This document shows, piece by piece, positions 116-46,634 of a stretch of DNA of 64,000 bases; positions within the stretch are counted from its first letter, which is position 1; each line of letters starts with the position of its first letter. This DNA is from a virus. Lineage: Duplodnaviria; Heunggongvirae; Uroviricota; Caudoviricetes. The position numbers and the translations under genes are program-made. The notes under the pieces are model-generated. The model was not told the DNA's origin, ran no database searches, and saw only the letters and a program-made list of their open reading frames with translations. Location: the IMG/VR virus record IMGVR_UViG_2698536687_000001; one strand, given 5' to 3'.

Positions 116-141
116 TTCTCTTAAACCAAGGTTTAGGATTG
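116..141. other. cix: cix-like crossover site for the Cin invertase (TTCTCTTAAACC-AA-GGTTTAGGATTG); bases 1-115 are the edge of an invertible tail-fibre C segment
   Basis: 12-2-12 dyad-symmetric site with TAAACC half-site ends, resembling hix/gix/cix sites; overlaps the cin stop codon at 133-135. Confidence 0.6.
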
Positions 142-693
142 AAATGATGACGCAGGAAACTTTTTATAAAGCGTGGAAACAGCAACATCATAGATGATTG
201 CAACCTGCTTACGGGGGATGCCATTCTCCAGCAATCGACGCATTTGCTGCCATGTTTCTTCTTGGTATTTAGGCCGACGGCCTCCTATTCGACCTTCTGC
301 GCGAGCTGCATCAAGTCCAGCGCGTGTACGTTCAACGATAAGCTCACGTTCCATTTCTGCCAGCGCCCCCATTACGTGAAAGAAAAAGCGCCCCATTGGT
401 GTACTGGTGTCGATGGAGTCAGTGAGACTCCGGAAGTTAATGCCTCTGTCACGCAGCTCTTCCACCAGCACAACTAAGTGACGCATGCTGCGCCCAAGAC
501 GATCTAACTTCCATACGACTAGGGTGTCACCTCTGGAAAGCATACGGAGAACCTTTTTTAACCCAGGGCGTTCAGCCTTTTTGCCGCTCGCCTTGTCCTC
601 AAAAATTAGCTCACATCCTGCGCTTTCAAGAGCGTTTCGTTGTAAAGCAGTGTTTTGTTCATTTGTTGATACGCGTACATAGCCTATTAGCAT
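133..693 (-). CDS. cin: Serine recombinase, Cin/Gin/Hin/Pin-family DNA invertase
   Basis: 186 aa; N-terminus MLIGYVRVSTNEQN with catalytic Ser, GDTLVVWKLDRLGRS and C-terminal HTH (IYDVAVSTLYKK), near-identical in pattern to P1 Cin as recalled. Confidence 0.9.
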   Translation of the reverse strand: MLIGYVRVSTNEQNTALQRNALESAGCELIFEDKASGKKAERPGLKKVLRMLSRGDTLVVWKLDRLGRSMRHLVVLVEELRDRGINFRSLTDSIDTSTPMGRFFFHVMGALAEMERELIVERTRAGLDAARAEGRIGGRRPKYQEETWQQMRRLLENGIPRKQVAIIYDVAVSTLYKKFPASSFQS

Positions 694-820
694 ATTTTCT
701 GCTCACTATCGTTATTTATAGCAAGCTGCGGATTTTAATTAACAAAAACCAGTATGTGTGGAAATCACAAAGTACATACCGTTTCCCAATGATATTTAAT
801 TCACTATTAAGGAAATAGTT

Positions 821-1102
821 ATGTGTGATTTCACAATAATGCTCCTCTCCATCCTTGGCGGGGTGCATTCGTTTCTGAATGGGGTTCGTGAAAAACGTTA
901 CGAAGCGTCATGCAGGCAATTGATGGCCGAGTGTATTGCTGCCGTACTTGCAGGCTTTATAGGCATGTATTTCGCGGAATATAAGGGTATGGATGAAAGT
1001 CTTCAGAATTGCGTGACTATTATTTGCAGCATCAATAACAGGCTCATTCTTGAAAAGTTACAAAGGATTATCGATTCGTACCTCAATAGAAATGCCTCTT
1101 AA
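821..1102 (+). CDS. Hypothetical small protein with hydrophobic segments, between cin and the lysis/dar operon
   Basis: 93-aa ORF with ATG preceded by AGGAAATAG; no recognisable motif. Confidence 0.3.
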   Translation: MCDFTIMLLSILGGVHSFLNGVREKRYEASCRQLMAECIAAVLAGFIGMYFAEYKGMDESLQNCVTIICSINNRLILEKLQRIIDSYLNRNAS

Positions 1103-1169
1103 GCAACAAATGACCGGTTGAGAAGTTACTTTGCATACCATTACCTCCTGACAACGTAGGAGGGAACTT

Positions 1170-1499
1170 GTGCTTGACACACAGGAATTAGCTCCAGTTG
1201 CTATTGCGCTCCTGCTTTCAGTAATTGGTGGGATAGGCACGTTCCTGATGGATGTCCGAGACGGTCGCCAGTCTGGCAATTTGTTGGGATTGGTTACGGA
1301 GATCTTTGTTGCAGTGACAGCTGGCGCGGTGGCGTACCTATTGGGGCAACACGAGGGCTGGGAGTTATCAATTACGTACTTAATGGTAACGATAGCCAGC
1401 AATAACGGTCATGAGGTGATTTCAGGGATGAAACGAGTGAATATCGATAGCATTCTGAATGTTCTTACAAGTTTGGTGAAAAAGGGAGGCGGGAAATGA
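1170..1499 (+). CDS. lydA: Holin (P1 LydA-like)
   Basis: 109 aa, hydrophobic helices (VAIALLLSVIGGIGTFL, IFVAVTAGAVAYLL), charged C-terminus; first gene of the dar operon as in P1. Confidence 0.7.
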   Translation: MLDTQELAPVAIALLLSVIGGIGTFLMDVRDGRQSGNLLGLVTEIFVAVTAGAVAYLLGQHEGWELSITYLMVTIASNNGHEVISGMKRVNIDSILNVLTSLVKKGGGK

Positions 1500-1939
1500 T
1501 TGGCTGGGGTGTATGCGTTCTTGCGTTAGCCTTAGCCGATCGCTATTTGCTAAAACGCAAGGACATCACGCATTTAGAACTTGGTGATGTGGAAATTAAA
1601 CCGGGTTTCATCCGGGTGCCGTTCAAGTACCGGTCTAAATTCCCGTTTTTGCGCGGCGCAACGGTCAGATATTGGATCCGCGATGTTCAGAAGCCGACGA
1701 CAGTGATTGAAGGTGAACAACGTTGTCTGACGTCGGCTGAACAGGGCGAAAACAGTGAATGGTTGTACATACCCACTGAATATATGGGTAAAGGAGAGCG
1801 ACTGTGGCATTTCAACGTCATGGTTACGCATGGCGACTCGTTCATTAACCCGTTGTATCGGATTTTCCCTGTTACTCAGCAAATCCGCAGAAGTTACGTA
1901 ATAAATCTCGCACAGGATGTGTCAGATGACGAAAAATAA
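1496..1939 (+). CDS. lydB: Antiholin-like protein (P1 LydB-like)
   Basis: 147 aa, start overlaps lydA stop (ATGA coupling), N-terminal hydrophobic segment; position matches P1 lydB. Confidence 0.55.
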   Translation: MIGWGVCVLALALADRYLLKRKDITHLELGDVEIKPGFIRVPFKYRSKFPFLRGATVRYWIRDVQKPTTVIEGEQRCLTSAEQGENSEWLYIPTEYMGKGERLWHFNVMVTHGDSFINPLYRIFPVTQQIRRSYVINLAQDVSDDEK

Positions 1940-2528
1940 GTATGCAACGGTCGATTTTGACCAGGTTAATGAAAAGGGGCTGAAATCCCTTATCGCGGCG
2001 ATCAATAAAACCGGTGTTACGGTAATTGAGGTTGACTCCAGCAACCGCGCAACAACGAAAGATGGCGTTAAAGTTAAAACCGCAAAGCTGGTTCTTAACG
2101 ACGGACAAATTCTTGCCATACAGGTAAACGATACTGGCGATATATCGTCTGTGAAACTGAATGGAAAAGCTATTCCTAACGCTCAGTCGCCGGATATCAA
2201 GACGCTTGGTACCGTCATGGGACAGGCGGCCCGCAAAAACTCCGCAAAATTCCAGAAATCACTGATCGCCAAAGCGAAGCGTGTTGCCAATCCGGTAGAC
2301 AAGAAACCGGCAGTTAAATCCAACTTTCAGCGCCTGCAAGAAGCAAAACAGCGGAATGCTCAGGTGGTTGCCGCTTATAAATCAGCGCAGAACTCGGTGT
2401 CTTTCAATCAACAGCAGATCACTGATTTGCGGGCGAAGCTGGATAAGGTGACAGGCCGACTCAATAACGAAAAGGCCCGAAATGGCGAACTCAAACGCCG
2501 TCTTAAGCAACTGAAAGCAGGAAATTAA
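1926..2528 (+). CDS. hdf: Hdf (homolog of DarA fragment), head-associated antirestriction component
   Basis: Shares the NSAKFQ-containing lysine-rich segment with the downstream DarA ORF; start taken at ATG 1926 (AGGA 9 nt upstream), alternative ATG at 1917. Confidence 0.6.
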   Translation: MTKNKYATVDFDQVNEKGLKSLIAAINKTGVTVIEVDSSNRATTKDGVKVKTAKLVLNDGQILAIQVNDTGDISSVKLNGKAIPNAQSPDIKTLGTVMGQAARKNSAKFQKSLIAKAKRVANPVDKKPAVKSNFQRLQEAKQRNAQVVAAYKSAQNSVSFNQQQITDLRAKLDKVTGRLNNEKARNGELKRRLKQLKAGN

Positions 2529-2529
2529 C

Positions 2530-4449
2530 ATGGAACAGTTCAATATCAATAAAGGGGTGACGATCAAGCCTGGGCTTGACGTGCTTCCCCCGCCAGTGAC
2601 TGATGATGAATATCGCGCATTAATGGCCGGTGAGGACCGCTATCTGATGACGGAATCCAACACCCTGGAGGAAATCGAGGCTACGTTCTTCTATGACACG
2701 CCGATCCACTGGTGTGCTACGGATTTACTGGAGGCGATTAGTTCTACTCGTTTGCAGTTACACCGGACCATGCAGGCATTTGTCCGGGCATTGAACCAGA
2801 AGCTGAATGGTACCGGAATCTCTGCGGGGAGTGATAAAACGGGGGATGTGGCCCAGAGCGGCGCGCGCGCGATCGGCGGCGCTGAAATTGGCCGGGCACG
2901 TAACGTTAACGGGCTGCCGGTCTTGCCAGCCATTATTCCGCTCAGTGATGGTCAGACTATCAGCATTCTGTTTCATAGCCCGACAGCGGAAAACCGGATC
3001 ACCAATAGCGATACGCTGGTTGCTTTCCAGTTCTTACTGAATAAAAAAGACGTTACTCACACAGTTGCTCCGATGAGTGGACGTGATATGACGCTGGCGC
3101 AGGTCACCATGAAACTTGCCAACCTTGCAGAGAAAAACTCGGCAAAATTCCAGCGTGCGCAGAAGAAGAAAAAAGCCCTTGTTGATGAAATAACCCAACT
3201 ACAGGCTGACAGTGACCAGAAAGAGGATGCCATGAGCGACCTCGCGGATCAGGTGGCAGCGGTAGAAGGGCAGAAGGCAGATCTGGAGCAGAAAATTAAC
3301 GCTGTTGCATCGGAAGCGGATTCTCTTTATGAAGAGAATGAGCGTTTGCAGACGGAGATTGATCAGCTCAATCGCACTGGTGGGCGCAATACCATTGCTC
3401 CAGCGGGGATGACTGGTGGGCACTCTCACGCGCTGACGGATCGCCTTGCCAGTATCAAAAATCGTATGCATATGGACGGGGAAGTGACGCTCAGTAATGG
3501 TGCATCAATGAAGCAATTCATTGGGGGCAGCGAAGGGTATATCCAGTTAACCGATCCGGATGGCAGCGTATACATGATCAAGGCTAAATCCATACAGGGT
3601 GTGGACATGGCAGATGCGATCGGCAAGCTGTTTAAAGCCTATAAAGCGGGTAATGTATCGGAATACCTGGTCCAACCAGAAGAACATAAACCGGAAAACG
3701 TCGAACCTGAACCAGCGGAGGATACCGGTAGCTCTTCGCCTGAACCAGAAGTCTCTGTAGGTGCATATCGATATGCCCTGCAAATGCGTCCGGCGGCCCC
3801 TGGCGCAATACCTGAAGGTAACAAAGCAATTCTGCCGCGCCCTGATGAAGGTGACCCGTATTATGAATATGCACGCTACGGCATTGCTACTTACGATACC
3901 CCGCTTTCTGATCAGCAAATGAGTGAGTACGACCTGAAGTTATTGCCTCGCGAGGATTCTTTCGACTTCCTGGCGAAGACACTTACTAATGGTCCGTTTG
4001 GCAAATATGCACAAAAAGCTCTGGAGCTGGCCACCAGCTCACCAGACGAGTTCCGCGTAATGCTGAAAACTCAGTTTCAAAAAACTTTCCCCAATATTGC
4101 GTTTCCGGGTGGCGCTGGCACCGAGAAAATGGTGCAGAGCATGATCAATGCATTGCAGGCCGAAGTCGGTGAGATTACTCAGCCAGAACCGGCCCCGGCA
4201 CAGCCTGATGAAACGGTTAGCGAAGCAGATGCAGAGGCTAATAAAGCCATTGAATATCTCAATAACGTGATGGATATGCAAAGCACTGACATGGCGGAGA
4301 TCCGTAACGCCCGGGGCAATGTCCGGGAAGCGATTGCAGCCCTTCAGGCTGCCGGACGTTTTGAGGAAAACGAAGAGCTGGTTAATGGCGCTGCTCGCCA
4401 CCTGGCTGATCTGCTGGTAGCAATCCAGAAAGCGGGGGTAGCGGCATGA
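2530..4449 (+). CDS. darA: DarA, defence-against-restriction internal head protein
   Basis: 639 aa, matching P1 DarA size as recalled; coiled-coil centre; sits between hdf and ddrA. Confidence 0.7.
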   Translation: MEQFNINKGVTIKPGLDVLPPPVTDDEYRALMAGEDRYLMTESNTLEEIEATFFYDTPIHWCATDLLEAISSTRLQLHRTMQAFVRALNQKLNGTGISAGSDKTGDVAQSGARAIGGAEIGRARNVNGLPVLPAIIPLSDGQTISILFHSPTAENRITNSDTLVAFQFLLNKKDVTHTVAPMSGRDMTLAQVTMKLANLAEKNSAKFQRAQKKKKALVDEITQLQADSDQKEDAMSDLADQVAAVEGQKADLEQKINAVASEADSLYEENERLQTEIDQLNRTGGRNTIAPAGMTGGHSHALTDRLASIKNRMHMDGEVTLSNGASMKQFIGGSEGYIQLTDPDGSVYMIKAKSIQGVDMADAIGKLFKAYKAGNVSEYLVQPEEHKPENVEPEPAEDTGSSSPEPEVSVGAYRYALQMRPAAPGAIPEGNKAILPRPDEGDPYYEYARYGIATYDTPLSDQQMSEYDLKLLPREDSFDFLAKTLTNGPFGKYAQKALELATSSPDEFRVMLKTQFQKTFPNIAFPGGAGTEKMVQSMINALQAEVGEITQPEPAPAQPDETVSEADAEANKAIEYLNNVMDMQSTDMAEIRNARGNVREAIAALQAAGRFEENEELVNGAARHLADLLVAIQKAGVAA

Positions 4450-4811
4450 CACTATCAGCTATTGAGTTAATGGATCTCAGCGATAAGTTGGATGCTCTGA
4501 TGTCCAAAGCGGCGACCGCGAGTGGCATGGAGTTGCTGGATATCAGCGATGAAATTGACCAGATCATGCAACAGATGGGGTACGGCGCGTCCGGCGGTGG
4601 TAGTGGCGAGGAAAAACAACCTTCGGAACATGATGGTGTGCCAAAACTGGTTGCTGATTTCCTGGCTGATAAATTCGTCGATCAGAGCACCGATGCATTT
4701 ATCGGTACCTTGCAGGATTTGAGTCAATATGTTGGCACATACATCGACCTGGACCAGGTTAAACAGCACACGGCGGCATGGATAGCCGCCAACATTAAAG
4801 AGGCAGCATAA
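4446..4811 (+). CDS. ddrA: DdrA-like protein of the dar operon
   Basis: 121 aa, overlaps darA stop; position as in P1. Confidence 0.55.
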   Translation: MTLSAIELMDLSDKLDALMSKAATASGMELLDISDEIDQIMQQMGYGASGGGSGEEKQPSEHDGVPKLVADFLADKFVDQSTDAFIGTLQDLSQYVGTYIDLDQVKQHTAAWIAANIKEAA

Positions 4812-4823
4812 GGCGTAACAGGG

Positions 4824-7811
4824 ATGAGCTTAAGCGATCAGGTGGTAATGGCCACCAGCATAGAAACGCTGATCGAGCTGCTAAAGAACCTGCCCGATTA
4901 TGGGCGGGTTTCGTATGTGGTGACAGCGAAGGGAGACGAGGTAAAAACAGCGTTTGATATCGTCGATGCCTCAGTTCTTTTGGTATCCAATACTCTGGAT
5001 GGGAAAATTAATCCTGACTATCCCCAGGAACTTCAACCGCGCGACCGGACCCGCGCATCCAGCCTTCTTCAGGTTAACCAGATATCCAAAGATTTGCGGC
5101 CTGCTCAGCTTACTGATTCCGGTTTATCCAGCCATGGCGCGCCGATAATTGGTGAGGACAATGCCGTTGAGTCAGGTAATGGACGGACCATGGGGATCAT
5201 CAAAGCCTATCAGGACGGCAATGCGGATCGGTATCGTGAGTACCTGATTGATCATGCGACCGAATTCGGCATACGACCTGAAAAGGTTGAATCAATGACG
5301 GCTCCGGTACTGGTGCGCCGCCGGTTAACTAAGGTTGACCGCGTTCAGTTTGCCAAGGACTCAAATATTTCTGATCTTCAGGAAATGGCAGCCAGTGAAA
5401 AGGCTTTTGTTGATGCCGACAGCATAACACCGGCGATGATGGCGCTTTTTAACCCGTCAGAAAGCGGAGATCTGCTTAGCCGCAGTAATGACGCGTTTAT
5501 TCGCGGATTTATGACGCAAGTTGGTGCCACACAGGCGGCTGGCCTTGTAACGGAAGATGGGCGACCAACGCGGCAACTTGTTGACCGTATACAAAACGCG
5601 ATCTTTGCCAAGGCATATAAGGATGCGCGCCTGGTAAGGATGGTTGCAGAAGAACCTGATCCGGATATGCGTAATGTTCTGACGGCGCTTAATGCGGCAG
5701 CCAATGATTTTGTCCAGATGCAGGCTTTATCAGGAGAAGCGCACAAGCAGGCTGTGACAACTATTGTTGATGGCATTGAGACAGCGGATAGCCTCGATAA
5801 AAAGGCGCTGGCGGCATTGAAAGATGCGGTAGACCTGGTAAGGCAATCGAAGGAGTCAGGCCAACATATTACCGATGTTATTGCTCAGGGGGATATGTTC
5901 AGCGAAACAGCCCCGGAAGTGAAAGCTCTCGCGTTGTTCATCGTCGCGAATAACCGTAGCGCGAAGCGTATGGCCACCGCCTTTAAATTGATGGCTCAAC
6001 GTATCAATGATGAGTTACAGCACCAGTGCCAGGCGCTGGGGGATATGTTTGGCGGTGGTGATGTGTCGTTACAGGATATCCTTCGCCAGGTGTCTCAGGA
6101 ACTGGAAAACGAAGGCATGCAAGGGATATCCGGCGGTCTTTTCGAGTCCGTTTCCGGCGGTAGTTACAACGGTGTTGCTCCATATACCAGTTTGCTATTA
6201 CATCGGGCATCCGGCATCAAAGACATTATTCATCTGATCAGGCTGCTTTCCCGTACAGATCCCCAGGATGAACAGCTTGTACAAGTGCTTGCGCATTTTG
6301 TTCGAATGCCTGTTGCCGACGTGAAAAAATGGTGCCGATTATTCGGTATCAGCAATTCGTTACTTCGCGGCTTGTTAAATCACGCATCCTCCCTTGGGCG
6401 CGATGGCTTTGACGAGATAGCGCAGGCGATAAAAAACGGAGATATGCCACCAGCTATTGACTGGTTTTCCATTCGCCCAACCAGGGTGAAAGCATTCCTT
6501 AGCGCGGCGCATTCGGCATCACCATTGGCAGAAATGGTTCAGAGATTGTCGCTCATATTCACAGACCATACCGCGTTGGGTGATCTGACTCTGGACGAGA
6601 TGAAAGAAGCCTCCATTCAGTGGGCCGATCAACAAAATGAGGTTAACTCAGACTTCTTGCCAGCATTCAGGAAGGCCGTTAGTAAAGCGGATGATGCCCG
6701 TGGAATTCTGAAGGCATTTAAGGCATTGCAAAGTCGTGTTAATAAACATGTCGGTGATATCGATGGGGTAACGGCGGAAGGCCGGGATATTCTTAAAGAG
6801 CACGGCATAACACCAGAGTTTATTGATGAGATCAGGACGGATATGCAGCGTGAGGTCGTATCGTCCCTGCAAATTGTAGCCAGAGCGTTGGCGGATGCTA
6901 ATCCGAAGAGTGCGGCCATTGTTAACCGGGTTATTGGTGATATTGAAGCATCGGAGGGCATGGGGGCGCTGAAACTCTTCCTTTCGCGAGCGTTTAATCC
7001 TAACGGCAATATTCTCCCTGGCATTATTGGTGAGGCTAAAAAGTATGTCAGTGAAGAAGAACTTGAGCAGCTTGACCAACTACTTAAGCGATTCTCATAT
7101 AACCCGCAGACACGCTGGCAAATGAATCAGCGAAGTATGGGTTCGGTCCACGAGAAAGTGTTATCTGCCATGAACAGTGCGATCGCAAACTCATCCGTAT
7201 CTGAAGAAAAAGCTCTTGAGTGGGCCGACTCTTTTATCACGGAAGAAGTGGAAGAAGCTCGCGCTGGACAGAATGGTGGGATAGACCTGCGCAAGGAACT
7301 TGCTGATATTTATCGCCTGACCGGCGGGAAAATATCGACCTTATCAAAGGTAGTTCACCACCAGGGAAGGGCATATGCAAATCTAAATGGTGTTGTTGCT
7401 GTCAATTTGAACGATGAAAATGCAAGTGCACTGTGGCACGAGCTGGGTCATCATCTTGAGTACAGTAACCCTGGTTTGTTAGAGAAAGCCCGATCATTCC
7501 TGAAGGCCAATGTTGAAGGGGATAAGCCATCTTTCGTCAATATCGGTGGGCGTGGCAAGCCTGAATGGTGCTTCAGATCTCGATTGAGTAATATTTATAT
7601 GGCGAAGGTATACCCGCCAGTCTCAGTGAGTAACTCAGGGAAAATTCGGCAGAAATCACCGACTATTTCCAAAACGTCAGCAACGGAAGTATTCTCTATG
7701 GCTCTTCAGTTGTATCATGACAAAGAGGCCGCTGCCGCATCACTGATGAATGGTGACGGATTGCTGGAACTGTTATTAGGTGTGGCAAAGGAGCTAAATA
7801 ATGCAGATTAA
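4824..7811 (+). CDS. ddrB: DdrB-like large protein of the dar operon
   Basis: 995 aa ORF directly after ddrA; position and size as in P1. Confidence 0.6.
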   Translation: MSLSDQVVMATSIETLIELLKNLPDYGRVSYVVTAKGDEVKTAFDIVDASVLLVSNTLDGKINPDYPQELQPRDRTRASSLLQVNQISKDLRPAQLTDSGLSSHGAPIIGEDNAVESGNGRTMGIIKAYQDGNADRYREYLIDHATEFGIRPEKVESMTAPVLVRRRLTKVDRVQFAKDSNISDLQEMAASEKAFVDADSITPAMMALFNPSESGDLLSRSNDAFIRGFMTQVGATQAAGLVTEDGRPTRQLVDRIQNAIFAKAYKDARLVRMVAEEPDPDMRNVLTALNAAANDFVQMQALSGEAHKQAVTTIVDGIETADSLDKKALAALKDAVDLVRQSKESGQHITDVIAQGDMFSETAPEVKALALFIVANNRSAKRMATAFKLMAQRINDELQHQCQALGDMFGGGDVSLQDILRQVSQELENEGMQGISGGLFESVSGGSYNGVAPYTSLLLHRASGIKDIIHLIRLLSRTDPQDEQLVQVLAHFVRMPVADVKKWCRLFGISNSLLRGLLNHASSLGRDGFDEIAQAIKNGDMPPAIDWFSIRPTRVKAFLSAAHSASPLAEMVQRLSLIFTDHTALGDLTLDEMKEASIQWADQQNEVNSDFLPAFRKAVSKADDARGILKAFKALQSRVNKHVGDIDGVTAEGRDILKEHGITPEFIDEIRTDMQREVVSSLQIVARALADANPKSAAIVNRVIGDIEASEGMGALKLFLSRAFNPNGNILPGIIGEAKKYVSEEELEQLDQLLKRFSYNPQTRWQMNQRSMGSVHEKVLSAMNSAIANSSVSEEKALEWADSFITEEVEEARAGQNGGIDLRKELADIYRLTGGKISTLSKVVHHQGRAYANLNGVVAVNLNDENASALWHELGHHLEYSNPGLLEKARSFLKANVEGDKPSFVNIGGRGKPEWCFRSRLSNIYMAKVYPPVSVSNSGKIRQKSPTISKTSATEVFSMALQLYHDKEAAAASLMNGDGLLELLLGVAKELNNAD

Positions 7812-8109
7812 AATCGCAGCGCCATTAGGCGGAGATGCCATTATCGAATTTGATGATAATGAAGAAGTTTCCGGGCGTTTAAGCATTATCTCCGGTGACA
7901 TTACCGAGGACATGATCGCTGAAGCCATAGCTGGAGCAAATCCCAATAGCTATATGGGATTCGTTAACACCCTTGATGCTCCCGCAAGTGATGTTCTCCG
8001 AACGCTGCATCTTTACGCTGGCTGGTTTGTTGATTGGCCTGTTGTAGATGGTGGCGATGAGGACGACGACGATGATTTTGGTGATCATGTAGGTCAGAAT
8101 GTTTATTAA
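7801..8109 (+). CDS. Small acidic protein with poly-Asp tail, translationally coupled to ddrB
   Basis: 102 aa, start overlaps ddrB stop; C-terminal GGDEDDDDDFGDH. Confidence 0.4.
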   Translation: MQIKIAAPLGGDAIIEFDDNEEVSGRLSIISGDITEDMIAEAIAGANPNSYMGFVNTLDAPASDVLRTLHLYAGWFVDWPVVDGGDEDDDDDFGDHVGQNVY

Positions 8110-8279
8110 ATAGTATTAGTGTAAGCTTAATTAGCTATTTTTAAGGCACAAAATTTGTTTATTCTATAGACGGAGTTGTGCCTGATTTTATAATTAAATA
8201 TTTCTCGCGTGCTGTAATAAGTGAGAGTGTTAAATGGTAATACTGGTTGTCTTTAGCAAAAGCTTAAAAGGAAATATAA

Positions 8280-8714
8280 ATGAACTCTTCGTCAAAACAG
8301 GCGATCATAATTCATGATGTATTATGCCATTATTGTAAAACTCACTATGATAGTGATGTCATGGTATTAACTATTGAACAGGATGTTAATTCTGGGTGGA
8401 ATCTTCGTGGTAAAGGAGAAATCCATACTAAATGTTCATGTCCTGTCTGCGGAATGATGTATACTGCTGTAAAGAGAATGATACCTATTGAGTGTGATAG
8501 CTATTTATGTCCAACGTGTAATGAATCATCAAACCTTGAATATAATGTATACAAGATCGAACGAGTTCAAGATAGTAATGATTTTACATTTAAAGCTAAT
8601 ATAATATGTAAGAAATGTCACAATAAAAAAACATTGACTAAAGTCATCAAAAAAATCCTAAATATAAAGAGAATTGAAGTTAAACTTACAGGGATTACTA
8701 TTGAGAGATATTAG
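8280..8714 (+). CDS. Cysteine-rich putative double zinc-ribbon protein in an AT-rich islet
   Basis: 144 aa with CxxC/CxCxxC/CxxC/CxxC spacing; AAGGAAATATAAATG RBS; visibly lower GC than flanks. Confidence 0.5.
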   Translation: MNSSSKQAIIIHDVLCHYCKTHYDSDVMVLTIEQDVNSGWNLRGKGEIHTKCSCPVCGMMYTAVKRMIPIECDSYLCPTCNESSNLEYNVYKIERVQDSNDFTFKANIICKKCHNKKTLTKVIKKILNIKRIEVKLTGITIERY

Positions 8715-8819
8715 TGAATAATTTTGATAGGTATTTTATAGCTGGATTGTAATTTATAGCTGAATGTGATGAACATCGAATACAAGCAGGTAATAATCCC
8801 GCCAATCGGCGGGATTTTT

Positions 8820-9614
8820 TTAATCGCTTTCCACTTCTTCCGTGGTGTTTTCTTGCAGTTCTGTTAATGCAGCACGGCACAGGTTACGGGCATTGGCTAT
8901 AGCCACACTTTTTACCTCATCCGTCATTGTGCAGGTAATGTACTGATCGAGTTCTTCAGCTCGGATGATGCTTTTCCCAATCATAAACTCTATTTGCCAG
9001 AGCAGATCGGCATCCATCGTCAGTATTTCAGCCGGGCCTTCTGGGCCTGCGGGGAAGCAAACATAAGACTGTTTGCCCAGGCCGATAACTCGACAACTTG
9101 CTTCAAGAATTGCGCGCTTGAGGTCTGACTTTGTAACGGAAACAGGTTGATTTTCACCAGTGATTACGCCGTTGACATGGAAGTGGAAGGGCATGTAGCT
9201 TGAAATTCGCTCTACTTTCCATACGCCAGCAAGCGATCCTTCATGCAGCACAATGGGGGTAACCGCGAGTTTCATCTCACCATATAACTGCTGGCAGATA
9301 GCTGGATTGCTGAATACATCCAAAGGTTCACACTCAAACAGCGGCGCAATCTGCATGAGGTCCATCATGGTCATACCAGGGGTACGAGCAGTAATGAATC
9401 TGCGCATTCCAGTATCCATTGTGCGCCAGATAGCTACACCATGCTTTTTGCTCACTTCTTCAGTAAAGCCAAGGTGGCACATGATGGTTGTTTCGATAGC
9501 CAGATCGGAGATAGAAACCTTTTCGCCTGGCACTCCATCATTATTGATGGTCACTTCGACACTCTGGCCATTACGTAGGCGGTATTGAATGGTTTTAGTA
9601 TTTTGTGCTGTCAT
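8820..9614 (-). CDS. Hypothetical protein
   Basis: 264 aa from ATG at 9614 (MTAQNTK); the 304-aa six-frame ORF extends upstream of the likely start. Confidence 0.45.
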   Translation of the reverse strand: MTAQNTKTIQYRLRNGQSVEVTINNDGVPGEKVSISDLAIETTIMCHLGFTEEVSKKHGVAIWRTMDTGMRRFITARTPGMTMMDLMQIAPLFECEPLDVFSNPAICQQLYGEMKLAVTPIVLHEGSLAGVWKVERISSYMPFHFHVNGVITGENQPVSVTKSDLKRAILEASCRVIGLGKQSYVCFPAGPEGPAEILTMDADLLWQIEFMIGKSIIRAEELDQYITCTMTDEVKSVAIANARNLCRAALTELQENTTEEVESD

Positions 9615-22193: not shown

Positions 22194-25100
22194 TCAGAAG
22201 GTATACTTCACGCCCAACATTGCAGATGTGTCGTTATACCCTTTGTCACCGACTTGAACACCTACATTCCCCCACAGGTTCAGTCTGGAATTTATCTGCC
22301 CATCAACACCGGCTTTTATTTCTCCGATATTACGAGCACCGTCCTGATGTACCGTCACGCCATTCATTCGAGTACCAAAATCACGGGTGTTATGCAGCCA
22401 GTTCACTTCCACAAATGGGCTGAATTCCTGGGATTTGCCTTCATCTATACGACTGTGGCTTTTAATCCATGTTTTCACGCCCAGACGGGTACGGACATTA
22501 CCGTCTCCGGTGCTTTCAACACGGGTACCGTTGCTTTCGCGGTGTTCGTCCGCTTTAACACCCATCCAGATGACCTGAGCCTGAGGCTGGACATACCACT
22601 CATTCAAACCACCTTGGTTGCCCGTAAACTCTCCCGCCTTCCAGGTATAACCAGTTTCCAGTGATGCAGTAAGTCCTTTTGATTTCCAGGATTCACTCTG
22701 CAATCCATCACCTTTAACATAGTTATCAAACCAGCTGTACTGTGCCCAAGAGTCCAGGTAAGCTCCGTTATGTGTTTCATCATTGGCATACCAGGTAGCG
22801 TACAGCCCAGTGCTGTAACCATTCACACTACCTTTTGAACGATATCCTGTGCGCACAGATTCTGTATTGTTGTGGTCATTACCGTATCCGGCCATTAAGC
22901 CAAGATGCCAGCGATCCGTCTTATTCCAACCCCACTGTGCTATATCGCCGCCCAGTTGCATAACATAACGGTTGCTTTGTGTTTTTAGCTGGTTGCTTCC
23001 GTCGCGCCAGCGATTGTGTCCACCCTCATGACGCATCCACATGCTTGTAGTTTTCAACTCACCGGTAATCACATCGGTATACTGCATTTGCCCCTGACGT
23101 TCGTGTAGGCGAGTCACGAACATTGTATTTGCAGCAGCAATGTTTGCCGTATAGCTACCAGCTTCTGGGCGAAGATCATTGTCACCTGGTGTTGGGGTCG
23201 GATTTGGCACCGGGTCCGGGTTCGGAGTNNNNNNNNNNNNNNNNNNNNNNNNNNNNNNNNNNNNNNNNNNNNNNNNNNNNNNNNNNNNNGGTCCGGGTTC
23301 GGAGTTGGATTTTCAGGTTGTTTGCCACTAGTTAGGTACCAGTTGCCATTTTTATCACCTTGTCCCCGCCCAAGAGTGTAATCATAAGCACCAGCCGCAA
23401 TTCGCCCAACTTGTACAAAGTCACCGTTAGATTGACCATCAACCTGGATAATGTTGATGCCATTGAGTGTTTGTGCCCCAATACCACCAACATTGTTTAC
23501 GGAAACAAAGGTTTTACCCTCTGTATTTCCTTTTACAACCAACTTATCGATTGGAGAGGTGTCGTCACCAAGAACACCTGAAAAGTAGATATAGCCATTT
23601 TCGCCAGTATAATCACCATTAATTGTTAAAGTGTTTTTTGCATCGCTGCCCAAGTATATAGAGCCATTATTATTAAGATGAGCAACATCCGAATCGCTAA
23701 CCATATTCCAGATGCTGTTTTTAGCTAAATTAACAATGCCACCGTTATACGCGGTTCCAGTCCAGTTGGAATTTTCTAATGCCAGATTGGCAATGCTGTT
23801 ACTATCAGCGCGAATATCGCCATTAAAGGAAGTATTCTTGACTGTAACATCAACCTTCCCTCCCACACCAGCATCATTCCTGAATGAGGAAATAAATGTG
23901 CCGTTATTCTTAATCTGGCTGCTATCTAGCGTGGCGGAAATGACTCCACCCTTGGCATTGAAATTATACCCTTTTTCACTAATCATCACCCCATTCTCTT
24001 GGGTGAGCTCAATTTTGGCATTTTGGGCAACAAATACAGAATCAGCATTATTTCCTGATACGTGAATGGATGTATTATTACCACTAATAACGGTATAATC
24101 ATCACTGCCCCATATTCCATGAGCGTAATCTCCGCTTGTTGTAAGCGATGAAGCAGAACCAAGTGTAACTTTCGCACCTGTATTTGCTGTTACACCATAC
24201 GATTTCTGCCCTTTGGTTATTATTCGGGCTGTGCCGGTATTAACAGTCGCGTCATTTTGTGCGTTTATACCGTGTGAGCCAATACCGTCTGTATTAATAA
24301 CTATTTCTTCGACGCTAATATCAGTTTTTTTACCATGCCCCCACACACCTATCGACTGCTCACCAGATGTGGATATTGTGGATGTACCCGTCAGCTCCAC
24401 GCTTGAATCAGGTGCTGAGTCTGTAGCGGATGAGGCCGTAACATATATACCTTCGGCTGATGTACCGGTAGTTTTTATTGATACACTATCTCCAGTTATT
24501 AAACCACCATTACCACCTACAATCTGTATGGCTTTAGCCTGCTCTCCTGATGTTTCAAGAGATGCATTTACCCCTAGATTTATATTCCCATTATTAGAGA
24601 TAGTTACCGCATGAGCTTGTGTGCCAGAAGTCGTTGCCTGGAGTCCTTTAGATACAGAGATACTAGCGTTATTGCCATCTGCACGTAAACCATAGCCATT
24701 TTGGCCTGAAGTAGAAATATTGACATCAGTTAATTCAGCTAAGCCACCTGACGATGCAAATACTCCCCATGCTCCTGTTCCATCAGTTTTAATCTGCGTA
24801 TTTGTTAGTGAGACATAACCGTTATTTTCGGCAGATACGCCACGAGCTCCCCATGCTTGTGATGGTTTTTTATCCCCCAGAGTGGTAATAGTAGAGTCGC
24901 TAATCACTATGTTGCTATTTTTACCAGAGCTAACAATACCTCTGGCATTATATCCAGATGTAGTAACATTAACTTTGCTTAAGGTAGCCTGGCCTCCATT
25001 TAAAATAGAAACACCACTAGCGTTTACACCAGATGTGTTAATGTCGCCTTGTTCAACAGTTAGTGTTGATTTGTCAACATTAATTCCAGTTGCATTCATC

Positions 25101-31052: not shown

Positions 31053-31318
31053 NNNNNNNNNNNNNNNNNNNNNNNNNNNNNNNNNNNNNNNNNNNNNNNN
31101 NNNNNNNNNNNNNNNNNNNNNNNNNNNNNNNNNNNNNNNNNNNNNNNNNNNNNNNNNNNNNNNNNNNNNNNNNNNNNNNNNNNNNNNNNNNNNNNNNNNN
31201 NNNNNNNNNNNNNNNNNNNNNNNNNNNNNNNNNNNNNNNNNNNNNNNNNNNNNNNNNNNNNNNNNNNNNNNNNNNNNNNNNNNNNNNNNNNNNNNNNNNN
31301 NNNNNNNNNNNNNNNNNN
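31053..31318. other. Assembly gap (266 N)
   Basis: Run of N starting 9 nt after the c1 stop. Confidence 0.99.
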
Positions 31319-38963: not shown

Positions 38964-39344
38964 CTACTCCGCAGAACCATACAATCTACGTAACGTGTCG
39001 GCGACAGAAGATACAGATATCTCGCCAGTCGCAGCGCCTACAGTAAGGTCTGCCAGTTCAGGTGAATCAAATACCTGCACCCCGTTACGGCGTAGAAATA
39101 ACAGCGCACTGTTTAGCGCGGTACGCTTATTGGCATCATTGAATATATGCCCTCTCGCTGTAGCCACCAGGTAGGTGGCGGAGACTTCGAAAAGGTCGGT
39201 GATCTCTTCGTAGGCAACTCTGGCCTGAACTCTCCCGATAATGGCCTCTGCCCTACCCGGATCTGACATTCCCGGCAGGCCGCCGTAGCGGTTTATATTC
39301 GCATCATGAAGCGCAATAAGTTCTTCCGGTGATATATGCCTCAT
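38964..39344 (-). CDS. doc: Doc toxin (Fic-fold kinase)
   Basis: 126 aa [25 protein letters not shown]...[13 protein letters not shown], matching P1 Doc. Confidence 0.95.
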
Positions 39345-39565
39345 TATCGGTTAACCAGTTCCTTGTTGGTGGAGTCCAGGGTGTCAAACAGGGATGCAAA
39401 TTCAGCATCCAGCGCCGCTTTTTTGTAGGCTTCGAAAGTAGCCTTGCTGACAATTACTGCTGGCTCACGGCCTCTGCGGGTGATTTCAACCTCTTCCCCG
39501 GCCTCAACATTGTTGAGCACTTCAGAAAGGTTGCCGCGCGCGGTACGGAAGTTAATGGATTGCAT
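39344..39565 (-). CDS. phd: Phd antitoxin
   Basis: 73 aa [39 protein letters not shown], overlaps doc start. Confidence 0.9.
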
Positions 39566-39741: not shown

Positions 39742-41304
39742 ATGAAAATGACAAGTATTCAACAACGTGCAGAGCTTCATCGTCAAATCTGGCAAATTGC
39801 TAACGATGTCAGGGGTTCGGTCGATGGATGGGATTTTAAGCAATACGTTCTGGGCGCACTTTTCTACCGTTTTATCAGCGAAAATTTTTCCAGTTATATT
39901 GAAGCCGGTGATGACAGTATCTGTTATGCGAAACTGGATGACAGCGTAATTACTGATGACATTAAAGACGATGCCATCAAAACTAAAGGCTACTTCATCT
40001 ACCCCAGTCAGCTTTTCTGCAACGTAGCTGCGAAAGCAAATACTAATGACAGACTGAATGCAGATTTAAACAGCATCTTCGTTGCTATCGAAAGTTCTGC
40101 TTACGGTTATCCTTCAGAAGCTGACATCAAAGGTTTGTTTGCTGATTTCGATACCACCAGTAACCGCCTGGGTAACACCGTTAAAGATAAAAATGCCCGC
40201 CTAGCTGCGGTTCTGAAAGGGGTTGAAGGGTTAAAACTTGGTGACTTCAACGAACATCAGATTGACCTGTTCGGTGATGCCTATGAGTTCCTGATCTCTA
40301 ACTATGCGGCAAATGCCGGTAAGTCAGGCGGCGAGTTCTTTACACCGCAGCACGTCTCTAAGCTGATTGCACAACTGGCTATGCACGGGCAGACCCACGT
40401 TAACAAAATCTACGACCCGGCAGCAGGCTCCGGTTCGCTGTTGTTGCAGGCTAAAAAACAGTTTGATGACCATATCATCGAAGAAGGTTTTTTTGGTCAG
40501 GAAATCAACCATACGACCTATAACCTGGCGCGTATGAACATGTTTTTGCACAACATCAACTACGACAAGTTTGATATCAAGCTGGGCAATACGCTGACTG
40601 AACCGCACTTCAGAGATGAAAAACCGTTTGATGCCATCGTTTCTAACCCGCCGTATTCGGTGAAATGGATTGGCAGCGATGACCCGACGCTGATTAACGA
40701 TGAACGTTTTGCCCCAGCTGGCGTTCTGGCCCCCAAATCCAAAGCTGACTTTGCGTTTGTATTACATGCGCTGAACTATCTTTCTGCCAAAGGTCGTGCT
40801 GCGATTGTTTGCTTCCCGGGTATTTTTTACCGTGGCGGTGCGGAGCAGAAAATCCGTCAGTATCTGGTCGACAATAACTATGTCGAAACCGTGATTTCAC
40901 TGGCACCGAATCTGTTCTTTGGCACCACCATTGCCGTCAATATTCTGGTGTTGTCTAAACATAAAACCGATACCAACGTTCAGTTTATTGACGCCAGCGA
41001 GCTATTCAAAAAAGAGACTAATAACAACATCCTGACTGATGCCCATATCGAACAGATTATGCAGGTATTTTCCAGCAAGGAAGATGTTGCTCATCTGGCA
41101 AAATCTGTCACGTTTGAGGCCGTTGTCGCTAATGACTATAACCTGTCGGTAAGCAGCTATGTGGAAGCGAAAGATAACCGCGAAATTATCGATATCGGTG
41201 AGCTGAATGCTGAGCTGAAAACCACGGTCAGCAAAATCGACCAGTTGCGTAAAGATATTGATGCGATTGTGGCTGAAATTGAAGGCTGCGAGGTGCAGAA
41301 ATGA
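39742..41304 (+). CDS. hsdM: Type I restriction-modification methyltransferase subunit (type IC, EcoR124-like)
   Basis: 520 aa, AdoMet motif [10 protein letters not shown] and NPPY catalytic motif. Confidence 0.95.
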
Positions 41305-42551
41305 GCGAGATGAGTTATCTGGAAAAATTGCTGGATGGGGTTGAGGTTGAATGGAAAGCAGTGGGCGATATCGCCGGGTATTCAACAACCAAAGTTGATG
41401 CTGATAAACTTGATGCCACTTCATTCGTTGGCGTTGATAATCTCCTTGCTGATAAAGGCGGTCGCATTGATGCCACCTATCAGCCTAATACGGCACGTTT
41501 AACTGCCTATGAGCCAGGTGATATTCTTTTAGGTAATATTCGCCCATATTTAAAGAAAGTTTGGATGGCGGAGAATAATGGCGGGTGCAGTGGTGATGTC
41601 CTTGCTATACGCATTTTAGCAGACTGTAAAAAAATTATTAGTCCAGAATATCTCTACTATGCATTATCGTCGGATTCATTTTTTTCTTACAGTATGCAGC
41701 ACGCTAAAGGGGCAAAGATGCCTCGAGGCAGTAAAGATGCAATTTTAAACTATCAAATACCCATCCCTTGTCCCAGCGCCCCGGGAAAATCCCTTGCCAT
41801 CCAGTCTGAAATCGTTCGGATTCTGGATAAATTTACTGCACTTACCGCTGAACTTACCGCTGAGCTTACCGCTGAGCTTAACATGCGTAAAAAACAGTAC
41901 AACTACTATCGCGACCAGTTGTTTAGTTTTAAAGAGAGTGAGGTTGAGTGGAAGACCTTAGGGGAAATTGGCCATTTTACCCGAGGTAAACGTTTTGTTA
42001 AAACAGATATGCTTTCTGAAGGTTATCCATGTATTCATTATGGAGAAATGTATACTTATTACAACGTATGGACAAATAAAACAAAGTCATTTGTTAGCCA
42101 TGAACTGGCAAGTAAATTAAGAGTTTCAGAGTATGGTGATGTGATAATTGTTGCTGCCGGGGAAACAATTGAAGATATAGGAAAAGGAACAGCTTGGTTG
42201 GGTAAATCAAATGTTGTTTTTCATGATGCTTGCTTTTCATACAGATGCTTACTAAACCCTAAATATATTGCATACTTTACTCGAACAAAAATATTCCATG
42301 ATCAAATAAAAAAACACATATCTTCAGGAAAGATATCAGCAATTAACGCAAATGGGTTATCCAAGGTAAAAATACCTATGCTTTCAGCGAAGGAACAAGC
42401 TCGCATTGTCGACATACTCGATAAATTCGACACCCTGACTAACTCTATCACTGAAGGTCTTCCGCGTGAAATCGAGTTGCGCCAGAAACAATACGAGTAC
42501 TATCGTGATTTACTGTTCAGTTTCCCAAAACCTGAAACTGTCAGTAATTAA
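41301..42551 (+). CDS. hsdS: Type I restriction-modification specificity subunit with central TAEL repeats
   Basis: 416 aa; two target-recognition domains around [46 protein letters not shown]; second domain visibly AT-rich; overlaps hsdM stop. Confidence 0.9.
41841..41876 (+). repeat. Three tandem 12-bp repeats (CTTACCGCTGAR) encoding LTAE x3 in the hsdS spacer
   Basis: CTTACCGCTGAA CTTACCGCTGAG CTTACCGCTGAG. Confidence 0.95.
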
Positions 42552-42672: not shown

Positions 42673-45600
42673 ATGACTCATCAAACACACACCATTGCTG
42701 AATCTAATAACTTTATCGTTCTTGATAAGTACATCAAAGCTGAGCAAACAAGCGACAGCTACCAGAGCGAATCGGACCTGGAACGTGAACTGATTCAGGA
42801 CCTGCGAAATCAGGGCTATGAATTTATATCCGTAAAATCACAGTCGGCAATGCTGGCCAATGTTCGGGAACAGCTTCAGAACCTCAATGGTGTGGTGTTT
42901 AATGACAGCGAATGGAGGCGTTTCACGGAGCAGTATCTGGACAACCCGAGCGATGGCATTCTGGATAAGACCCGTAAAATCCATATCGACTATATTTGCG
43001 ACTTTATTTTTGATGACGAGCGTCTTGAGAATATCTATCTGATAGATAAAAAGAATCTCATGCGTAATAAGGTGCAGATTATCCAGCAGTTTGAACAGGC
43101 GGGTTCTCATGCTAACCGTTATGACGTCACGATCCTGGTTAATGGCTTACCACTGGTACAAATCGAACTGAAAAAGCGTGGTGTAGCGATTCGTGAGGCT
43201 TTCAACCAGATACATCGTTACAGTAAAGAGAGTTTTAACAGCGAAAATTCCCTGTTTAAGTATCTGCAGCTGTTCGTCATTTCCAACGGCACTGATACCC
43301 GTTATTTTGCCAACACCACAAAGCGCGATAAAAACAGTTTTGACTTCACCATGAACTGGGCTAAATCAGACAATACACTGATTAAAGACCTCAAAGACTT
43401 TACCGCTACCTTTTTCCAGAAACATACTCTGCTTAATGTTCTGGTGAACTACAGCGTTTTTGACAGCAGTCAGACACTACTGGTAATGCGACCGTACCAG
43501 ATTGCCGCCACCGAGCGCATTCTGTGGAAAATTAAGAGTTCCTTTACAGCGAAGAACTGGTCAAAACCGGAAAGCGGTGGGTATATCTGGCACACTACCG
43601 GTTCTGGTAAAACCCTCACCAGCTTTAAAGCCGCGCGTCTGGCAACAGAGCTGGACTTTATTGATAAAGTCTTCTTTGTGGTCGACAGGAAAGACCTCGA
43701 TTACCAGACCATGAAGGAATATCAGCGTTTTTCGCCAGACAGCGTCAACGGCTCGGAAAATACCGCAGGCCTTAAACGAAATCTGGATAAGGACGATAAC
43801 AAAATTATCGTCACTACTATTCAGAAACTTAATAACCTGATGAAAGCAGAAAGCGACCTGCCTGTATATAATCAGCAAGTGGTGTTTATATTTGATGAAT
43901 GCCACCGCAGCCAGTTTGGAGAAGCGCAGAAAAACCTGAAGAAGAAATTCAAACGCTATTATCAGTTTGGTTTTACCGGCACACCTATTTTCCCGGAAAA
44001 CGCCTTAGGCTCAGAAACGACCGCCAGCGTATTTGGTCGTGAATTGCATTCGTATGTAATTACCGATGCGATTCGTGATGAAAAAGTGCTCAAATTCAAG
44101 GTGGACTACAACGATGTGCGGCCACAGTTTAAGTCTTTAGAGACAGAAACTGACGAGAAAAAACTAAGTGCGGCTGAAAATCAGCAGGCGTTTCTTCATC
44201 CCATGCGTATTCAGGAAATCACGCAATATATCCTGAACAACTTCCGCCAGAAAACCCACCGTACCTTCCCAGGCTCCAAAGGCTTTAATGCCATGCTGGC
44301 AGTGAGCAGCGTGGATGCCGCGAAAGCCTATTACGCGACGTTTAAACGGTTACAAGAAGAAGCCGCTAATAAATCGGCTACCTATAAACCGCTGCGTATT
44401 GCGACAATCTTCTCCTTTGCCGCCAATGAAGAACAAAATGCCATTGGTGAAATTTCCGATGAAACTTTTGATACCAGCGCAATGGACAGCAGTGCTAAAG
44501 AGTTTCTGGACGCTGCAATTCGTGAATATAACAGCCATTTTAAAACTAACTTTAGCACCGACAGTAACGGTTTTCAGAACTACTATCGTGATTTAGCCCA
44601 GCGGGTTAAAAATCAGGATATCGATCTGCTAATTGTCGTGGGGATGTTTTTAACCGGCTTCGATGCTCCAACATTGAACACGCTATTCGTCGATAAAAAC
44701 TTGCGTTTTCACGGCCTGATGCAGGCATTTTCCCGCACCAACCGTATTTATGATGCAACTAAAACCTTCGGTAATATCGTCACTTTCCGGGATCTGGAAC
44801 GCTCAACTATTGATGCCATAACGCTGTTTGGTGACAAAAACACCAAAAATGTGGTGTTAGAAAAGAGTTATACAGAGTATATGGAAGGCTTTACTGATGC
44901 TGCTACAGGTGAAGCTAAACGCGGCTTCATGACAGTAGTTTCAGAACTGGAACAACGGTTCCCTGACCCTGCCAGTATTGAAAGTGAAAAAGAGAAGAAA
45001 GACTTCGTTAAACTGTTTGGCGAATACCTGCGTGCCGAGAACATCCTGCAAAACTATGATGAATTTGCCACGCTAAAAGCCCTGCAACAAATCGATCTTA
45101 GCGATCCTGTTGCGGTAGAAAAATTCAAAGCAGAACATTATGTGGATGATGAAAAGTTCGCTGAATTGCAAACAATTCGTCTCCCTGCTGATCGCAAGAT
45201 TCAGGATTATCGTTCTGCCTATAACGATATTCGCGACTGGCAGCGCCGTGAGAAAGAAGCTGAGAAAAAAGAGAAATCAACCACTGACTGGGATGACGTA
45301 GTTTTTGAGGTCGATTTGCTGAAGTCTCAGGAAATAAACCTGGATTATATCCTTGGACTGATTTTCGAACACAACAGACAAAATAAAGGCAAGGGCGAAA
45401 TGATCGAAGAGGTCAAACGCTTAATTCGTTCAAGCCTGGGGAACCGAGCGAAAGAGGGCCTGGTGGTCGATTTTATTCAGCAAACGAACCTGGATGATTT
45501 ACCAGATAAAGCCAGTATCATTGAGGCATTCTTTACGTTTGCTCAACGCGAACAGCAACGTGAAGCAGAAGCATTGATAAAAGAAGAAAATCTCAATGAA

Positions 45601-45789
45601 GAAGCAGCAAAACGCTATATTCGCACGTCTTTAAAACGCGAATACGCCACCGAAAATGGCACAGAATTAAACGAAACATTACCAAAACTTAGTCCATTGA
45701 ATCCGCAATATAAAACGAAAAAACAGGCAGTTTTCCAGAAAATCGTCTCGTTTATTGAGAAGTTTAAAGGCGTAGGCGGAAAAATATAG
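42673..45789 (+). CDS. hsdR: Type I restriction endonuclease subunit
   Basis: 1038 aa; helicase motif I (TGSGKT) and DEAH-type motif II (FDECH). Confidence 0.95.
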
Positions 45790-45868
45790 CCCAATTCGTG
45801 TTTTTCTTGCGGGTTCTTAATTAAACCCGCAAGAGACCGTGGGGTTCCAAATGGCTAATATACTCCCC

Positions 45869-45955
45869 TTACCCATGCGCGACGATGCCGCCAAAAGTGA
45901 TAGAGAACAGCCAGAAATAGATCGCGGTCATAATGATTTTGAATACCGTGTTCAT
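45869..45955 (-). CDS. Small hydrophobic peptide (28 aa)
   Basis: MNTVFKIIMTAIYFWLFSITFGGIVAHG; AGGAG 8 nt upstream of ATG; below the six-frame length cut-off. Confidence 0.35.
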   Translation of the reverse strand: MNTVFKIIMTAIYFWLFSITFGGIVAHG

Positions 45956-45984
45956 ATCTTCAGCTCCTGTGATTGATTGGATAT

Positions 45985-46016
45985 ATGCCGCGCCCCTTGC
46001 GGCATGTTTTTATTTT
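45985..46016 (+). terminator. Rho-independent terminator downstream of hsdR
   Basis: ATGCCGC-GCCCCTT-GCGGCAT hairpin followed by GTTTTTATTTT. Confidence 0.6.
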
Positions 46017-46039
46017 CACTTTCTCTGTTTTAAAAAACA

Positions 46040-46056
46040 AGATTTATTAGAGCAGC
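46040..46056 (-). promoter_or_regulatory. C1-operator-like site
   Basis: AGATTTATTAGAGCAGC, 14/17. Confidence 0.4.
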
Positions 46057-46562
46057 TATTGTTGATGGAGAAGCACGTTTTCATACTCCCTGACCATTAA
46101 CGTAAGTACGCCGTGACTCCTGAAAACACGCGCTACTTCAATCTTATCTTCCAGCGCGAACGCAATTTTACTTAGACCAATTTTCTTAAGGAGATTAATC
46201 TTTGCTGGACCATCATTTCTGTCATCGGTGGCAGGACGCATAGATAGCAAAGGCTCAGCCCCGTTTGTTACGTGCTTACGCAACCAGGCTCGTGTTTTAT
46301 CCCTGGCTATCTCACAGCGCCCGGTTACAAACCAGAGCGTGTAAATGCAGGACAACTGGCGCACCATATCAATAACTGGAGTTATGGGTGTATCGGTGTC
46401 ACAGGCGAGATTAAACTCGTTCCAGTCCTTTGTTAATGCACCTTTGCCTGGTGGCGGAAGCAAATGCAGCCTGTCTTCAGTTGCTTCTGATATTGTTCCA
46501 TCAATATCGACTACGACGATGTACGGACGTTCCAGGTGTGCCTGTTTGTTGAAAATACTCAA
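46056..46562 (-). CDS. pap: HAD-superfamily phosphatase (P1 Pap-like)
   Basis: 168 aa with VVDIDGT motif. Confidence 0.6.
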   Translation of the reverse strand: MSIFNKQAHLERPYIVVVDIDGTISEATEDRLHLLPPPGKGALTKDWNEFNLACDTDTPITPVIDMVRQLSCIYTLWFVTGRCEIARDKTRAWLRKHVTNGAEPLLSMRPATDDRNDGPAKINLLKKIGLSKIAFALEDKIEVARVFRSHGVLTLMVREYENVLLHQQ

Positions 46563-46634
46563 ATGCCCTCCTCATTGGACGAAAAAAATGCTGGTGGGCG
46601 CACTCCACCAGCATTAAAAGTGACACTGTAACTA

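Follow-up and report, generated by a model that had tools for sequence, protein, structure and literature searches.

A candidate 28-codon gene of the P1 backbone behind the C1 operator Op88 and its copy beside a type IC hsd cassette

The closest described counterpart of the locus analysed here is the Op88/OpmgT-pmgT operon of P1 (Lobocka et al. 2004, GenBank AF234172). The P1 genes are ordered as pmgS, pap, the C1 operator OpmgT (formerly Op88) lying over two predicted promoters, a 150-nt leader, pmgT, pmgU and pmgV, and record AF234172 annotates no gene in the leader. Plaque formation does not require pmgT, pmgU or pmgV (PMC10695390), and any role of this module would therefore be accessory. 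A second related group comprises the type IC hsd loci flanked by P1 DNA (EcoR124, EcoDXXI and EcoprrI). Tyndall et al. 1997 (Mol Microbiol 23:729; reference 364 in PMC12707154) refer in their title to the P1 homology flanking such loci, and the P1 GenBank record flags it by misc_features. The small single-pass membrane proteins of at most 50 aa described in enterobacteria and phages (PMC11323111) share with the reading frame reported here the size, a hydrophobic helix, a strong Shine-Dalgarno sequence, missing annotation and lineage restriction. The type I toxins Hok, Ldr, TisB, Ibs and ShoB share with it a short hydrophobic peptide, location on a mobile element and a nearby terminator on the opposite strand.

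The window, that is, the whole stretch of 64,000 nucleotides that was analysed, comes from a P1-like phage-plasmid, and in the region studied its sequence identity with P1, P7, SJ46 and hundreds of P1-like phage-plasmids amounts to 93-97%. The alignment with P1 84229-84482 gave 94% identity (256 nt aligned). The window and the P1 operon are the same DNA with respect to pap, Op88, the predicted promoters, the leader hairpin and a 28-codon frame; the window differs in that pmgT-humD is replaced by hsdMSR and the body of the operon is gone. In P1, the small ORF (MNTAFKIIMAAIYFWLFSITFGGIVAHG) occupies coordinates 2664-2750 of locus L001, between pap/Op88 and pmgT, and it was found at the same place in P7. 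The window's copy sits at the orthologous position, the pap / pmgT interval of P1, with pmgT itself absent. The P1 backbone gene upstream of the small ORF is pap, which encodes a polynucleotide-kinase-type phosphatase and was placed at 46056..46562 (-) by the P1 annotation and Pfam. The pmgS-pap intergenic terminator hairpin at 46587-46615 (-), AATGCTGGTGG...CCACCAGCATT, contains the Chi octamer GCTGGTGG in both orientations. Elsewhere, the window includes two masked or unresolved runs of N (23229-23289, 61 bases; 31053-31318, 266 bases). The Cin invertase gene was located at 133-693 (-); no inverted repeats were found beside cin in positions 1-9000, so the invertible C segment is absent from this side of the gene and presumably falls beyond the window.

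The earlier note on this DNA had proposed a 28-aa hydrophobic peptide preceded by AGGAG-N8-ATG on the minus strand, and our translation of the frame at 45869..45955 (-), MNTVFKIIMTAIYFWLFSITFGGIVAHG, agreed with it exactly. The start region reads acAGGAGctgaagatATG on the minus strand, and the span including the whole ORF reads acAGGAGctgaagatATGAACACG...CATGGGTAA. The Shine-Dalgarno AGGAG (45968-45964) is followed by an 8-nt spacer (45963-45956), the ATG (45955-45953) and, after 28 codons, the TAA stop (45871-45869). The peptide has a single lysine (K6) near its N-terminus, followed by approximately 21 hydrophobic residues. The highest 19-residue Kyte-Doolittle mean was 1.97, which fits one membrane helix; the hydrophobic stretch is predicted to be long enough to span the membrane, as had been suggested, and the product is likely a single-pass membrane peptide. 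A membrane-modulator role is possible. Sites of the form AGGAG-N5-10-ATG occur 15 times on the two strands of the 64-kb window, and ORFs of at least 50 aa start at 11 of them. According to shuffled sequences, the expected number of such sites combined with an ORF of at least 25 aa and a comparably hydrophobic 19-mer was 0.05 per window. The AGGAG and ATG were invariant in all 59 distinct sequences of an alignment that had been gathered via Pap and thus involved no selection on the AGGAG-ATG motif itself. All indels in this alignment lay outside the small ORF, either in the leader, where they measured 2 nt and 4 nt, or past the stop.

Copies of the small ORF were found in 873 plasmids and 19 phages. 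Among 5426 complete E. coli genomes, 890 carry the sequence, which is almost always plasmid-borne. The earlier note had stated beforehand that a lack of conservation in related elements would count against the peptide; it was conserved in them. A word-indexed search of 5.8 billion clusters and a HMMER scan of 1.84 billion representatives gave no homologue beyond P1-like elements; all relatives recovered by both searches were at least 92% identical and came from such elements. Distant P1-like elements were sought via Pap and PmgT, and those obtained, phage D6 and a Leclercia plasmid, had another gene order and no equivalent ORF. Neither the 28-aa peptide nor a 44-aa version of it matched Pfam, NCBIfam, PHROGs or PADLOC, and the Rfam matches (GcvB, rli43) were at chance level, with E values of at least 0.09 and scores far under the gathering scores. 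The statement that the ORF is unannotated was accurate for the P1 reference records and inaccurate for SJ46 and some PGAP records, where the 44-aa version is labelled "membrane protein" or "hypothetical protein". The ATG of this longer version sits inside the leader hairpin, and a 2-nt insertion in the hairpin loop, common to the window's lineage and a few related lineages, shifts it out of frame in the window's lineage; the 28-codon start led by the Shine-Dalgarno sequence is therefore the conserved one. The literature search found the 28-aa peptide sequence in none of the papers searched and found no P1 ribosome-profiling data, and the P1 CRISPRi and knockout studies were limited to annotated genes. 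Compared with the described small membrane proteins, the 28-aa peptide has no sequence similarity to any and is known here from sequence alone.

The leader upstream of the small ORF carries the expected elements of a C1-controlled unit. The operator GCTGCTCTAATAAATCT was identified at 46040..46056 (-) from the P1 annotation and a consensus scan; it differs from the consensus ATTGCTCTAATAAATTT by three mismatches, and the window contained 14 C1-operator matches against 0.31 expected by chance. The C1-operator-like site reported earlier at this position was borne out, as it is the positional homologue of the annotated Op88/OpmgT of P1 and has the same orientation as the ORF. It is a 17-bp asymmetric site that lies upstream of the frame and overlaps the promoter. 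The equivalent of the predicted sigma-70 promoter P1pmgT, TTGTTT-N17-GAAAAT, was placed at 46012..46040 (-) by the P1 annotation and our own scan, and it is a weak match to the consensus in the window (7/12). In the window's lineage alone, operator positions 1-2 changed from AT to GC, which also turned the pap stop from TAA to TAG (46040-46058), and the -35 box of the predicted promoter acquired an A to T change. These changes are consistent with a decay of C1-controlled expression in that lineage. The predicted folds of the window's leader were dominated by two hairpins. On the plus strand, a GC-rich hairpin (45983-46007) followed by TTTTATTTTC was reported by the terminator scan as a canonical intrinsic terminator (45983..46017, +). 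It lies just upstream of the small ORF, antisense to its 5' leader, and the same hairpin on the minus strand forms the predicted 5' end of the small-ORF mRNA. At the other end of the frame, the TAA of the P1 copy overlaps the pmgT ribosome-binding site, 9 nt before the pmgT ATG (GGGTAAGGGGGATGCATG). This arrangement, typical of translational coupling, was found in P1; in the window, by contrast, the ORF is followed by the end of the convergent hsdR.

Since there was no homologue outside the P1 clade and the distant elements had another gene order, polymorphism within the clade was the available test of selection on the frame. The first pass comprised 82 loci and gave a pN/pS of 0.35, with a similar value of 0.42 for frame 2; the first, second and third codon positions had 4, 6 and 7 variable sites, without a third-position excess. 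The set was enlarged to 145 related loci, none of which had an internal stop in the small ORF, and it was split by downstream context and analysed as pairwise diversity, pap serving as the control gene; the signal of selection emerged only with this split and this measure. The 94 loci with pmgT downstream had a piN of 0.0010 and a piS of 0.0376, which corresponded to a piN/piS of 0.03 for the small ORF and 0.10 for pap. These loci encode 33 distinct Pap proteins, yet 91 of the 94 small peptides were identical. In the 44 loci where hsdR follows, piN was 0.0240 and piS was 0.0590; the ratio was 0.41 for the small ORF and 0.13 for pap, and 25 of the 44 peptides were altered, which fits the loss of a functional context. 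The other two frames had piN/piS values of 12.9 and 1.18 in the pmgT-type loci and approximately 1.2 in the hsd-type loci. Purifying selection was thus specific to the frame, the frames other than its own giving at least 1.17, on the basis of few mutational events. When the pmgT-type loci were collapsed to 57 distinct haplotypes, the piN/piS was 0.05. The changes in these loci amounted to three singleton replacements and four synonymous changes, and A26 (GCG/GCA) supplied most of the piS. A simple count test gave p = 0.045 for loci that are phylogenetically related and not independent. Some lineages tolerated damage to the ORF, i.e., C-terminal extensions after stop loss, an insertion at codons 19-20, frameshifts and truncation by IS1. 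Even so, the substitution pattern is what a translated gene under constraint in P1-type elements and under relaxation in hsd-type elements would be expected to show.

The reading that we favour, with a probability of roughly 0.6, is that the small ORF is a genuine, uncharacterised gene of the P1 backbone. It would be the short leading cistron of an early transcription unit that C1 represses at Op88/OpmgT; in P1, this unit extends through pmgT-pmgU-pmgV. The main alternative holds that the sequence is the untranslated leader of the pmgT operon, containing a fortuitous frame and constrained at the DNA or RNA level. It would suit an ORF that is short, lineage-restricted and free of family matches, the overall lack of a third-position excess in the simple variable-site counts, and the disrupted or extended versions present in several lineages. 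It also draws on the complementarity seen in P1, where the first dozen pmgT codons can pair with the 5' arm of the leader hairpin (2610-2622 versus 2782-2794 in L001) and with parts of the small ORF (2676-2724 versus 2770-2797), so that the 3' half of the ORF and the first pmgT codons form a predicted helix. However, this helix was no more stable than that of shuffled sequences (z = -0.5 to -1.9). Furthermore, constraint on DNA or RNA would not spare the third positions of one frame (0.03 versus 12.9 and 1.18), and an invariant consensus Shine-Dalgarno sequence at the ideal spacing from the ATG is hard to account for. We give the untranslated leader a real, minority chance of being the correct explanation.

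The terminator opposite the leader bears on the proposal of the earlier note that the peptide may be a small toxin and that an antisense RNA should be sought on the other strand. In a type I toxin-antitoxin system, a membrane toxin would be silenced by antisense RNA, either a dedicated transcript ending at 45983-46017 (+) or the 3' end of the hsdR transcript. A small single-helix peptide on a plasmid prophage would suit such a system, as would the canonical opposite-strand terminator directly upstream of the ORF. The terminator is also present in P1, where it is opposed to the direction of pap and pmgT and has no nearby gene on its strand. A plausible read-through across the ORF from hsdR, which lacks a T-tract terminator of its own, could provide the antisense transcript. 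However, the promoter scan of 45500-46500 returned no promoter-like site by the criteria of the tool, and our own scan found no antisense promoter of at least 8/12 in or beyond the ORF, the best candidates reaching 7/12. The plus-strand terminator thus has no cognate promoter in the conserved part, and nothing is annotated on the opposite strand of P1 within 2 kb. The peptide matched no type I toxin family in Pfam and the locus no antitoxin family in Rfam; PADLOC, NCBIfam and PHROGs also gave no toxin match. A charged tail, frequent in toxins of this type, is missing from the peptide, and IS1-truncated and extended versions of the ORF persist with no matching change in a partner. In contrast to the type I toxins, which are controlled by RNA, the small ORF lies under a repressor, the ordinary C1 control of other P1 lytic genes, and P1 already has phd-doc for addiction. 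We therefore consider the toxin-antitoxin explanation improbable.

The gene cassette downstream of the candidate backbone gene consists of hsdM (39742-41304, Pfam N6_Mtase), hsdS (41301-42551, Pfam Methylase_S) and hsdR (42673..45789, +; Pfam EcoR124_C and HSDR_N), the last belonging to the EcoR124 family (type IC) and convergent with the small ORF. The P1 homology ends with TAAGGGG (45865..45871, -), 4 nt past the stop of the small ORF, and the hsd-cassette DNA begins at 45864 (junction TAAGGGG|AGTATATT). In P1, the same junction sequence runs on as the ribosome-binding site of pmgT, TAAGGGGGATGCATG. Past the other end of the cassette, P1 homology starts again at the site of the humD stop codon and continues into phd and doc (38964..39565, -; doc at 38964-39344). 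The breaks on either side indicate that the hsdMSR cassette replaced the stretch from pmgT through humD. The work of Tyndall and colleagues reportedly places phd-doc on the hsdM side and has P1 DNA begin at one fixed point after hsdR. The replaced stretch corresponds to "variable region 8" of P1-like phage-plasmids (PMC9603915). The type IC hsd loci flanked by P1 DNA have the same architecture, the IncF version having lost most of the P1 DNA after hsdR to IS1, and to their description our analysis adds the joint 4 nt past the stop of the small ORF and the relaxation of the ORF there. The literature searched gave no sign that the ORF at this joint had been taken for a gene before.

Directly after the hsdR stop, the cassette includes an 11-bp perfect inverted repeat (45805..45834; TCTTGCGGGTT / AACCCGCAAGA), which had been taken for the hsdR terminator. 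This interpretation did not hold, as neither strand has a T-run after the hairpin (on the hsdR strand, TTTTT stands before it) and the terminator scan passed over it. The repeat was nearly invariant across the hsd-type loci and exhibited no covariation in them. The sole canonical terminator nearby is that at 45983-46017, the first proper one after hsdR in hsd-type elements. Read-through from hsdR across the small ORF is therefore probable.

The position of the ORF next to hsdR allows it to be viewed as an accessory of the type IC restriction system, for instance a regulator or inhibitor acting like the T4 Stp peptide on EcoprrI. All type IC hsd loci that we examined carry the sequence beside hsdR, including those on IncF plasmids and chromosomes, in agreement with the flanking P1 homology to which Tyndall et al. 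(1997; cited in PMC12707154) refer in their title. However, P1-type elements, which have no hsd, possess the ORF in its best-conserved form, and it is relaxed in the hsd-type ones. In several hundred IncF plasmids (e.g., pAMA1167-NDM-5), the EcoR124-family hsd cassette keeps codons 4-28 of the small ORF, and IS1 cuts it at approximately codon 3 (L003/L004, 3950-4085). Moreover, the peptide is hydrophobic, unlike Stp. A role as a component of the type IC hsd system is contradicted by this distribution, in which the presence of the ORF does not depend on hsd, and we regard an accessory of this kind as highly improbable. The earlier description of the ORF as "downstream of hsdR", in so far as it implied a link to restriction, was misleading, since the frame belongs to the P1 backbone and is present in P1, which has no hsd. 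Judging from its distribution and junctions, the small ORF is a piece of the P1 backbone left at a recombination joint and not a component of the restriction system. By the same comparison, the IS1-truncated ORF of the IncF plasmids is a molecular fossil, and their hsd cassette came from a P1-like element.

The TA|A step within the stop codon of the small ORF (45870/45869; stop at 45869-45871) was the left endpoint common to several independent deletions. Beyond those with pmgT or hsd downstream, at least six further junction sequences are joined to ...CATGGGTA (loci L069, L090-L092 and L094-L096). The parental sequence was found for five of the six and showed deletions that reach between 0.4 and more than 3 kb into the variable region downstream; four of these five also have TA before the right endpoint. 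The deletions destroy the TAA and lengthen the peptide by 9-37 residues, with one variant ending at an immediate TAG. Such variants are rare, accounting for 1 in approximately 100 IMG/VR contigs, and no terminal inverted repeat marking a transposon-like unit was found at the site. The site is not known to resemble the sites of the P1 recombinases Cin (cix) or Cre (lox). Random illegitimate recombination would not be expected to leave the left end constant while its TA partners vary. A more speculative and rather doubtful proposal is that the peptide is the functional partner of a product of the pmgT-humD module, and that the TA step is a specific recombination or breakage site at the left edge of the cargo-exchange region of P1. 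In this proposal, the fixed end found in at least five independent deletions resembles the work of a site-specific enzyme. If true, the partnership would explain a peptide that is frozen beside the module and drifts once hsd replaces it.

For the first cistron of an Op88/OpmgT unit, the P1 annotation suggests the following course of expression. C1 would keep the unit silent in the lysogen, and induction or infection would lift the repression and lead to early expression. Transcription of the leader would start at approximately 46005, and the AGGAG-N8-ATG would recruit ribosomes for synthesis of the 28-residue peptide, which may insert into the membrane as one helix with K6 on its N-terminal side. 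In P1, ribosomes ending at the TAA within the pmgT Shine-Dalgarno sequence probably aid initiation at pmgT. Coupling to pmgT alone would not explain the conservation of the amino acids, and the relaxation upon loss of pmgT-humD suggests that the peptide works together with a product of that stretch; its function, if any, we infer from this pattern. In the window, the small ORF would be the only cistron remaining, head-on to hsdR, and the hsdR transcript probably runs antisense over the whole ORF up to the terminator at 45983-46017, which would add to silencing. The A4V and A10T replacements relative to the P1 consensus peptide, together with the operator and -35 changes, fit relaxation of this copy, which is probably an orphaned, drifting and silenced remnant beside the hsd cassette.

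For this window, the finding is modest, as its copy, at a recombination joint that was already known, is probably silenced and drifting. P1-like phage-plasmids are present in roughly one sixth of complete E. coli genomes, and few phages have been used as much or annotated as closely as P1. The list of its genes would grow by an early, C1-controlled member that had been missed, and the pmgT-pmgU-pmgV module would become easier to approach. The constraint of the frame beside pmgT and its relaxation beside hsdR constitute a natural experiment, and this experiment points to where the partner of the peptide should be sought.
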